Source of the DNA: a virus
UHGV virus genome: UHGV-0128395
Length of the DNA: 44,690 nucleotides
Reading direction: 5' to 3' (one strand)
This document shows, piece after piece, positions 15,901 through 18,900 of this stretch. The number at the start of each line of letters is the position of its first letter. Position 1 is the stretch's first letter. Made by a program: the position numbers.

Positions 15901-18900
15901 AGTTTTGTGCTTTGTTTGCAATATGGTTATTACCAAAAACGGTCATATTCTGAGTTTCAGAATATGTGGTAGCCAGATAGATATTGTTCGCATCATATTT
16001 CAGGCCTGCAGCCCATACTTCCGCATTTTTGCCGGAGGCATTGAATTTGCTCTTACCATAGGCGACCTGACCGTCAGTGCGATCTGATTTAGCATAGGTT
16101 GCACCCACGCCGAATCCTTCATACTCATAAGTAGTGGAGAAACCGAAACCATCACCATTGGCTTCAGTTACGTCAGTGCGGTCATTTTTACCCTGATACT
16201 GAGCAGCAAAGTTCAGGCCATCGACCAGACCAAAGAAGTCGTTGTTACGATAAGTTGCAACACCAGTAGTGCGACCAGTCATGAACACATCTGTTTGGGT
16301 CCAGGTATCACCACCGAATTCTGGCAGAACGTCAGTCCACGCACCGATGTCGTATGCTACACCGTAGTTACGGCCGTAATCGATTGAGCCGTAATCACCA
16401 AATTTCAGGCCTGCAAATGCAAGACGGGTTTTGTCTTTGGAAGAACCTTGAGATTCAGCACGGTTGCCTTTGAATTCATATTCCCACTGACCGAAACCAG
16501 TCAGTTGATCGTTGATTTGGGTTTCACCTTTGAAGCCAAGACGGGCATAAGTAGTATCACCATCATCTGCATCATTAGAGGAGAAGTAGTGCTTGGCATT
16601 AACTTTCCCGTATAGATCCAGCTTGTTACTGTCTTTATTATAAATTTCAGCTGCCTGAGCAGACATCGCCATCAGTACTGATGCAGCTACAGCAGAAATT
16701 GCCACTGTTAATTTTTTCATTGTACGCCCTTTTTTTGAACTTTTATTAAAAAATGATGTCACTGCGCGATAAATATTCATCTAATCAATGTGATTATTTC
16801 AAGATGTAAGTTTTAGTTTCTCATTTAATTTGTGAAGTAGATCTCTATTTTTATCTGAACCTTTTCTATCTAATCCTATTCATGGCTCTTGTCTGAACAA
16901 AAATAAATCTATTAGCTAATTTATATTAATGGCACTTATTTATAAGTGCTCTATAATTCTTTAGCTTAATTTAAACAAACTAAAAATAACATCGGAAATT
17001 ATTAACTGGTTATTTGTTGAAGTTTTCTTATGCATTTGTGGTGGTGTTTTGAACACTCGGTGGCATTCTCACAAATATCATTTAGTAGTTTACGTACGTA
17101 AAAAATTGGTTATGCTGTTAAGAGTGGTTACTTCGTCACACAGCTTAAACCCGCCGTCGAGCGGGTTTTTCCATTTTTTGAGTCTCGATATTAGCTGATA
17201 ACCCAATACCTGAGTTATTCACTGACTCCGAATCTGTTACGTTTCTGCCTTTATTGCGATACGTAGTATCCCCTTAATTTACACCCGCTTTGTCTGCGAG
17301 GTGGGGTTATGAAATCCATGGATAAGTTAACAACGGGTGTCGCCTATGGTACCTCAGCAGGTAGTGCCGGGTACTGGTTTTTACAGTTGCTCGATAAAGT
17401 CACGCCCTCACAGTGGGCGGCAATAGGTGTGCTGGGTAGCCTGGTATTTGGCCTGCTGACGTACCTGACAAACCTTTATTTCAAGATTAAAGAAGATAAG
17501 CGCAAGGCTGCGAGAGGTGAATAATGCCTCCATCATTACGAAAAGCCGTTGCTGCTGCTATTGGTGGCGGAGCAATTGCTATAGCATCAGTGTTAATCAC
17601 TGGCCCAAGTGGTAACGATGGTCTGGAAGGTGTCAGCTACATACCATACAAAGATATTGTTGGTGTATGGACTGTATGTCACGGACACACCGGAAAAGAC
17701 ATCATGCTCGGTAAAACGTATACCGAAGCAGAATGCAAAGCCCTCCTGAATAAAGACCTTGCCACGGTCGCCAGACAAATTAACCCGTACATCAAAGTCG
17801 ATATACCGGAAACAACGCGCGGCGCTCTTTACTCGTTCGTCTACAACGTGGGGGCTGGCAATTTCAGAACATCGACGCTTCTTCGCAAAATCAACCAGGG
17901 CGATATCAAGGGCGCATGTGACCAGCTGCGTCGCTGGACATACGCTGGCGGTAAGCAATGGAAAGGGCTGATGACCCGTCGCGATATTGAGCGTGAAGTC
18001 TGTTTGTGGGGGCAGCAATGAGCAGGTTAACCGCGATTATCTCCGCTCTGGTTATCTGCATCATCGTCTGTCTGTCATGGGCTGTTAATCATTACCGTGA
18101 TAACGCCATTACCTACAAAGAGCAGCGCGATAAGGCCACATCCACAATCGCTGATATGCAGAAGCGTCAACGTGATGTAGCAGAACTCGATGCCAGATAT
18201 ACAAAGGAGCTTGCTGATGCTAACGCGACTATCGAAAGTCTCCGTGCTGATATTTCTGCTGGTCGTAAGCGCCTGCAAGTCGCTGCCACCTGTGCAAAGT
18301 CAACGACCGGAGCCAGCAGCATGGGCGATGGAGAAAGCCCAAGACTTACAGCAGATGCTGAACTCAATTATTACCGTCTACGAAGTGGAATCGACAGAAT
18401 AACCGCGCAGGTTAACTACCTGCAGGAGTACATCAGGGCGCAATGCCTTCGATGATAACGATAATTTTACTCATCATCCTTCACATCTGGCTCTGTAGAC
18501 AGGGTGGTGATCACTTCTGGAGTGAATCCAGATTAAACATCTCATTGCTGATGCTTGATATTGAGCATCTGGCGCGCGGTAAGGGGCTGCGTTGAGATAA
18601 GAGCCAGTCATCACAAACACCAGGATTTAGCCTCGCATTCGCGGGGTTTTTTTATTCCCAACTCCATAGGTAATTTTATGACCCAGCATATTGGCGTAAA
18701 ACTGATTAACGCCTTTCCGATGACGAGACAGGCATATAACGATTTTCGTGGCTGGCAGCTTCCTGCCGGAGAAAACGGCGAGGACGAAGGCTATCTGGTT
18801 GAATATCTGGATGGCGGAAAACCTAACACCGATCGCTTTGATGGCTACGTTAGCTGGAGTCCAAAAGAAGTATTCGAAAAGGCTTATCGTCCGGTATCAG

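Follow-up and report, generated by a model that had tools for sequence, protein, structure and literature searches.

A candidate Q-dependent late promoter unit separated from the Q gene by a reversed porin cassette in a lambdoid phage

The Q–holin region of UHGV-0128395

The virus genome UHGV-0128395 (44,690 nucleotides; the window, by which we mean this whole stretch of DNA) is that of a lambdoid phage, in which the space between the gene for the antiterminator Q and the holin gene holds a porin gene in reversed orientation and, at 17089–17179, a unit of promoter-like hexamers followed by a hairpin and a T-run. The 2.6-kb Q-to-holin block that was queried is 100% identical to Escherichia phage ev017. 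We assign a probability of about 0.85 to the interpretation that the unit is a late promoter module, consisting of PR' and its own terminator, on which the phage Q protein acts. Judged by its sequence, the unit falls among the Q-dependent late cassettes already known, being of the QuuD/Q933W type, and it matches that of the Escherichia coli prophage DLP12 exactly. The features of the region are as follows (coordinates are those of the window).

15066–15449, + strand: Q antiterminator of the QuuD/Q933W type, 127 aa (Pfam PF06530, E = 6.7e-54)
15638–16720, − strand: porin of the OmpC/NmpC/Lc type, inserted cargo, opposite to Q and the late genes (Pfam Porin_1, E = 1.9e-151)
17089–17116, + strand: PR' core promoter with −35 TTTACG (17089–17094), a 16-nt spacer containing an A-tract (17100–17105) and −10 TATGCT (17111–17116), aligned to the annotated pR' of VT2-Sakai and SC370
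17089–17102: perfect 14-bp palindrome TTTACGTACGTAAA (halves TTTACGT and ACGTAAA), −34 to −21, overlapping the −35; candidate Q-binding element
17119–17139, + strand: conserved initial-transcribed block TAAGAGTGGTTACTTCGTCAC, unique in the window and common to Q classes down to about 45% identity, with much of this conservation imposed by the search pattern
17123, + strand: putative transcription start (A), by homology only, from the Sakai Sp5 distances via the VT2-Sakai alignment
17124–17139, + strand: small 5' hairpin inside the initial-transcribed block (predicted pairs)
17147–17179, + strand: promoter-proximal intrinsic terminator, candidate tR', with an 8-bp stem (17147–17154/17161–17168) and then a U-tract (terminator scan, −12.0 kcal/mol)
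17180–17308, + strand: late leader of 129 nt between the T-run and the holin gene
17309–17524, + strand: S21-type holin (Pfam Phage_holin_2_1, E = 2e-35)
17524–18021, + strand: lysozyme (Pfam Phage_lysozyme, E = 1.8e-45)

The holin and lysozyme genes are the first late genes and lie on the same strand (+) as Q, and an AT-rich spacer separates the porin gene from the holin gene. In records of related phages and genomes the porin is named NmpC, OmpD or OmpC. The Q protein of the window shares 81% identity over 120 residues with Q of VT2-Sakai/933W and shows a distant match to the solved Q21 structures 6p18 and 6jnx (E = 4e-8; 36 bits, 81 residues).

The hairpin of the unit, AAACCCGC-cgtcga-GCGGGTTT at 17147–17168 (z = −2.9 relative to shuffled sequences), has 5 G-C pairs in its stem and is followed by TTCCATTTTTT (TT CC A TTTTTT, to 17179). 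A sequence-only reading of the window had described hexamers and terminator about 30 nt apart, and 30 nt do indeed separate the −10 from the stem; likewise, the unit, said to lie about 1.7 kb from Q, has its −35 1,639 bp beyond the Q stop codon at 15449. The same reading placed a strong terminator immediately upstream of the holin gene: a hairpin with a T-run is present, but the 129-nt leader intervenes and the hairpin is of moderate stability.

Consensus matching alone identified neither promoter nor terminator above chance, with 3 promoter-like sites in 14500–18000 compared to 7.7 ± 2.8 in shuffled sequences and 5 terminator-like sites compared to 3.2 ± 1.9. The TTTACG/TATGCT pair was not listed by the promoter scanner because its 8 matches to the 12 consensus positions fall below the threshold of 9/12; consensus matching can therefore not carry the assignment as PR', and the case for the unit as a real element rests on homology and conservation. 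Its 21-nt core TAAGAGTGGTTACTTCGTCAC is present as a single copy in the window, and 100 shuffles gave 0 matches to it even with 3 mismatches allowed. An Rfam scan of 14000–18500 returned only a chance-level hit to sau-19 (E = 0.79), located on a hairpin at 15587–15620, and no match for the PR' unit. An open reading frame of 49 aa (17049–17198, +) overlaps promoter and terminator and is recorded as 'hypothetical protein' in some phage records; it is most likely not a gene.

Homology to the late promoter of Shiga toxin phages

A sensitive DNA search with 17040–17308 matched 360 phage records, about 286 of which (mostly Shiga toxin (Stx) phages) match the query in part, typically over 17086–17170 with about 78% identity among the matches listed. 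In line with this, 17086–17170 aligns base for base with the unit of VT2-Sakai/933W (78% DNA identity over 85 nt), and the matched stretch in VT2-Sakai, SC370 and phage 06-3462 was annotated by the depositors as the late promoter pR', a putative qut site and the first rho-independent terminator. In the alignment with VT2-Sakai, the −35 (TTTACG) and the spacer length (16 nt) agree, the −10 reads TATCAT compared to TATGCT in the window, a block TAAGAGTGGTTAC is identical, and the hairpin and T-run are common to both. The PR' of 933W, VT2-Sakai (Sp5) and H-19B, which is the source of the StxS RNA, thus has the same palindrome position, initial-transcribed block and first hairpin with T-run as the window unit, and differs in the centre of the palindrome, which is AT in the 933W type and TA in the window.

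The homology also provides a likely start site. In the Stx2a prophage of strain Sakai, Sy et al. mapped the primary start of PR' by differential RNA sequencing (dRNA-seq) 258 nt upstream of a 3' end detected by Term-seq, found that the transcript is cut by RNase E in GU|AUU at +173, and described the promoter as constitutively active, treating it as a standard PR' (PMC7547250). In the VT2-Sakai sequence (L001), the T-run of the second annotated terminator ends at 1795 and GTATT is found at 1709–1713. As the 258-nt distance and the RNase E distance fit together, the start can be placed at A1538 of L001, 7 nt past TATCAT, which aligns to A17123 of the window, 7 nt past TATGCT. The homologous first hairpin of Sakai extends from +19 to +49 (−14.8 kcal/mol).

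The unit was also considered as a homologue of StxS, and this was rejected because the match to Stx phages ends with the first hairpin, at 17170. The 74-nt 3' segment of StxS (L001 about 1711–1795), which ends at the second terminator, as does the mapped 258-nt terminated RNA, has no counterpart before the holin gene of the window.

Identity to DLP12 and distribution in E. coli

From the −35 through the T-run the unit matches the DNA that precedes essD in the DLP12 prophage of E. coli K-12 with 100% identity, and a 331-nt region is 93% identical. DLP12 also has the same gene order (quuD, reversed nmpC, essD-rrrD-rzpD), so that the Q–porin–PR'–holin layout is already known from K-12. The DLP12 prophage differs in that its porin gene is broken by IS5, its leader carries a 17-bp deletion and it is defective, whereas the window phage is intact. 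Phage PA-2 is reportedly organized in a similar way, with an OmpC-like lysogenic-conversion porin (lc/nmpC) between Q and the lysis genes. The 2.6-kb Q–porin–PR'–holin block was found in 2392 of 5426 complete E. coli genomes (about 44%; coverage at least 80%), including Nissle 1917 and CFT073. According to one article, control of the DLP12 lysis operon involves 'the phage Q type antiterminator' together with RpoE and Hha, and the lysis genes are expressed and phenotypically relevant in uninduced K-12 (PMC7918800, citing Rueggeberg 2013, 2015, for the control). The files searched from a data set of K-12 RNA 3' ends (PMC7815308) contain no entry for essD, nmpC or quuD or near 5772xx and are uninformative either way.

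One further arrangement bears on the distance between Q and the unit. Phage 434B (L128, OL657227, 3126–6783), a viable laboratory derivative of 434, carries the DLP12 block (Q, nmpC::IS5, holin, endolysin), which it must have gained through recombination with the prophage of its host. Its Q gene lies about 2.9 kb from the unit, and its record has no annotated PR'; that a phage relying on the DLP12 version of the block is viable indicates that a Q–unit pair works at such a distance and lends indirect support to Q-dependent read-through of the terminator.

Palindrome classes pair with Q classes

To place the unit among its relatives, IMG/VR was scanned with the conserved core; the first 120 of at least 120 loci were taken as the sample and combined with reference loci and the window (128 sequences). 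Of the 128 sequences, 108 have a Q homologue on the same strand, upstream of the unit; for 19 of the remaining 20, less than 1.6 kb of DNA is available on that side. The Q stop codon and the unit are 2–37 bp apart in 27 loci, 619–858 bp in 10, 1114–1698 bp in 64 and 2220–2882 bp in 7. Displacement of the unit from Q (81/108) is thus the majority state in the sampled loci.

Between −35 and −10, eight sequence classes were distinguished, each with a perfect palindrome of 8–14 bp centred at −28/−27 and usually followed by an A-tract: TTTACGTACGTAAA in the window and DLP12, TTTACGATCGTAAA in 933W, GCGTACGC in the SfII type, and TTTACAATCGTAAA, GCGGTCCGC, TGTTATAACA, TGGAATTCCA and TTCGTTACGAA in the remaining classes. 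These classes pair one-to-one with eight classes of the Q helix-turn-helix (residues 72–108) in all 108 loci, with 0 exceptions, and the pairing holds across 25 unrelated types of insert between Q and the unit, despite downstream flanks that are shuffled among classes. Between classes, Q residues 1–71 are 50–99% identical, compared to only 22–76% for residues 72–108; class B2, for example, shares 99% of the N-terminus but 65% of the helix-turn-helix with the window Q, and its palindrome differs. As the palindrome changes with the class of the Q helix-turn-helix, it is likely to be the Q-binding element specific for the cognate Q, and the covariation links the unit at 17089 with the Q gene at 15066 whatever the distance between them. 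At the −10 position the pattern nAnnnT was kept in all promoter classes, its final T being fixed by the search pattern.

A hairpin followed by a T-run starting 42–65 nt from the putative start was present in 71 of 71 unique relatives (median −11.8 kcal/mol), including classes in which the sequence and position of the hairpin differ, and one compensatory pair change (AU to CG) was observed in the stem. About 16 of the 42 class-A (DLP12-type) relatives, for example L007, carry GAGCTGG in place of GAGCGGG in the 3' arm of the terminator (window 17161–17165). This G-to-T change leaves a stem of about −6.5 kcal/mol instead of −12.0 kcal/mol; these relatives may be leaky or decaying prophages. A separate group, L150 and about 20 other loci found via the published Q21 site, has PR' units of the phage 21 type, in which the −35 TTGACA is followed by TGAGCAAATGAGCA and then by a hairpin and T7 within about 50 nt, i.e. 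the same layout as in the window with unrelated sequence. The occurrence of a hairpin and T-run both in the relatives and in these units suggests that an early built-in terminator is a trait of the family.

One sampled locus (L063, 8882–12851) has a PR' unit of the TTCGTTACGAA class and no Q within 3.9 kb upstream, even by profile search. Host-like genes, one of them resembling an Ada methyltransferase, stand in place of Q, so that the locus is probably a truncated prophage.

Cargo in the gap between Q and PR'

In phages of the 933W type the −35 overlaps the last codons at the 3' end of Q and there is no insert, so that the displacement in the window is a real insertion. The only difference between the two arrangements is the reversed porin cassette of about 1.66 kb (15426–17086), which stands in place of about 59 bp. 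Two hairpins flank the porin gene on its Q side.

15482–15499, − strand: terminator-like hairpin and T-run 3' of the porin gene (terminator scan; −13.8 kcal/mol, z = −3.0)
15587–15626, + strand: strong hairpin followed by CTTTTT, between the Q and porin stop codons (−21.9 kcal/mol, z = −4.65)

The hairpin on the minus strand is a predicted terminator for the porin gene, and the one on the plus strand could possibly stop unmodified transcription leaving Q.

In the sampled loci the gap from the Q stop codon to the palindrome (15450–17088 in the window) is a hotspot for cargo, with 25 unrelated insert types in 81 loci (among them L004, L005, L010, L012, L016, L025, L053 and L093). For 23 of these 25 types, every cargo gene is encoded on the other strand from Q. 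Several of the cargo items match anti-phage defence families by sequence: PADLOC matches in the gap included KwaB of Kiwa (L016), the KAP NTPase PDC-S20 (L025), PDC-M53A (SfII, L004) and an HNH effector/PDC-M68A (L053). The position relative to the promoter distinguishes these inserts from the cargo of Stx phages (tRNAs, stx), which lies downstream of the terminators and is Q-dependent, whereas the porin gene of the window lies upstream of PR'. Genes inserted upstream of PR' are not subject to Q and may be active in the lysogen; those that follow the terminator, stx among them, are turned on when the prophage is induced.

Proposed mechanism

On the interpretation as a late promoter module, σ70 RNA polymerase would start at about A17123 and, without Q, most transcripts would end at the hairpin and U-tract at 17147–17175, giving an RNA of about 50 nt (48–53). 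Once early transcription arrives, Q would be made from 15066–15449 and, as the covariation suggests, two protomers would probably bind the palindrome TTTACGTACGTAAA (−34 to −21). By analogy with Q21, it would load onto polymerase held within the first approximately 20 nt at an early σ-dependent pause, and the Q-loaded polymerase would then be expected to pass the terminator and transcribe the holin and lysozyme genes and the other late genes. The porin cassette, with its opposite direction and its own terminators, occupies the stretch from the 3' end of Q to the −35; as Q is diffusible and recognizes a DNA site, its gene need not adjoin that site.

The best −10-like candidate for the pause is TACTTC at +7 to +12 (17129–17134), with T and A at positions 1–2 and C at position 6; the homologous hexamer of 933W is TACATT. 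The pause element is the weakest link of the proposed mechanism.

Weighing the alternatives

Several points weigh against the unit being a Q-dependent late promoter module. The hexamers match the consensus at only 8 of 12 positions, the pause candidate TACTTC lacks the final T that σ region 2 normally needs, and both the start at 17123 and the 3' end of the RNA are assigned by homology only. The plus-strand terminator scan found none between 17169 and 17735, so that there is no second terminator before the holin gene, and since at least those Sakai transcripts that give rise to the 258-nt StxS RNA extend past the first hairpin, termination at 17147–17175 in the window may be partial. The sampled loci were chosen by a pattern that fixes much of the core and are the first 120 of at least 120. 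Physical linkage of Q and the palindrome makes some co-inheritance expected; the covariation could partly reflect block inheritance of neighbouring DNA, and none of the 25 insert types was common to two Q classes. Finally, the DLP12 promoter has reportedly been found to depend on RpoE.

This last point leads to the alternative that the promoter is mainly host-integrated and driven by RpoE (σE), as proposed for essDp of DLP12, with Q working together with σE rather than σ70. The identity of the sequence to DLP12 favours it, and RpoE-driven transcription in vitro as well as a two-hybrid contact between Q and RpoE have reportedly been observed. RpoE is also listed beside the Q-type antiterminator and Hha among the controls of the operon (PMC7918800). 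We nevertheless regard it as improbable, as the homologous Sakai promoter is constitutive and a standard PR' (PMC7547250), the σ70 pattern nAnnnT is found at −10 in all classes, the structures of the related Q21 show loading onto a σ70 paused complex, and the window, being identical to ev017 over the 2.6-kb block, represents a complete phage and not a domesticated remnant. More serious, if still unlikely in our view, is the explanation that the unit is PR' but that the hairpin at 17147–17168 is inefficient, either leaky or mainly a pause or RNA-structure element, with the late genes kept low in the lysogen by a weak promoter or by other means. The stem has only 8 bp with 5 G-C pairs and −12 kcal/mol, the relatives with GAGCTGG reach only about −6.5 kcal/mol, the Sakai homologue is read through to the 258-nt RNA at the second terminator although it is equally stable, and the DLP12 lysis genes are reported to be expressed in uninduced K-12 (PMC7918800). 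On the other hand, the hairpin and T-run were kept in 71/71 unique relatives despite differing sequence and position, which speaks for termination being under selection; an early hairpin and T-run is also found in units of the phage 21 type, nothing else lies between PR' and the holin gene, and the methods used for Sakai would probably have missed an RNA of 50 nt.

The textbook cassette has PR' directly after Q, and the strong hairpin and T-run at 15587–15626 could be read as its tR'; the real late promoter might accordingly lie at 15450–15637, with transcription antisense through the porin gene, and 17089–17179 would be an unrelated promoter or attenuator. This is very improbable and was rejected: the plus-strand scan gave no promoter-like site in 15450–15637, this segment bears no similarity to any PR' unit, the PR' core is present in a single copy in the window, and the segment occurs in only 36 phage records, in 36/36 of them beside the porin, which assigns it to the cargo. 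Moreover, the unit homologous to the PR' of the 933W type sits at 17086–17170, and the Q-specific palindrome tracks the Q class wherever the unit sits. A late start at 15450–15580, named by the sequence-only reading as the outcome opposed to its own, therefore gained no support, whereas its proposal of a Q-modified late promoter separated from Q by the porin gene is supported by the homology to the 933W type, the identity to DLP12 and the covariation of Q and palindrome. That hexamers and hairpin co-occur by chance and have no function, as the consensus-match counts not exceeding those of shuffled sequences would allow, has a negligible probability: the core is conserved in 360 phage records and thousands of genomes, and the identity to DLP12 and the homology to the mapped Sakai promoter refute it as well.

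Comparison with phage 21 and lambda

The published classification places Q21 and Q933W in one family (the 'Q21/Q933W family', PF06530), and Q21 thus shares its Pfam family with the window Q, to which it is only distantly similar as a protein. Two Q protomers bind the element of phage 21, which is likewise situated between the −35 and the −10; it is a direct repeat (TGAGCA-AA-TGAGCA), whereas the candidate element of the window is a palindrome. The PR' of phage 21 has a hairpin and T-run within about 50 nt of the promoter, as in the window, and the transcribed sequences are unrelated. The PR'–6S RNA–tR' system of lambda follows the logic proposed for the window, namely a constitutive promoter, a short terminated RNA (194 nt in lambda), loading of Q at a promoter-proximal pause, and read-through; its PR' lies directly after Q, and its Q belongs to an unrelated family (PF03589).

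Implications

The apparently palindromic Q-binding element, unlike the direct repeat of Q21, and the use of the Q–PR' gap as a slot for reversed cargo are the less ordinary by-products of this analysis, and a limited literature search found no paper stating a palindromic Q-binding element with a mosaic Q or a general cargo slot. As a tentative generalization, whose chances we put slightly below even, Q proteins of the QuuD/Q933W branch of the Q21 family would be mosaics in which a conserved N-terminus that binds polymerase is joined to an interchangeable module that reads DNA, their binding element would be a palindrome at −28/−27 with an A-tract that is swapped together with the helix-turn-helix of Q, and the junction of Q with that element would generally accept inserts of reversed genes that do not depend on Q (porins, Kiwa, KAP NTPases, HNH effectors).

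For the phage of the window, late transcription is to be drawn from about 17123 and not from the end of Q, with the porin gene as Q-independent cargo upstream of PR'. As 81 of 108 sampled relatives have Q and the unit separated, PR' cannot be located in this family just by looking after Q. The palindrome classes offer a simple way to predict from sequence the Q that acts on a given late promoter and, since the palindromes of resident QuuD-type prophages and Stx phages differ in two central bases only, cross-activation between them may be possible.

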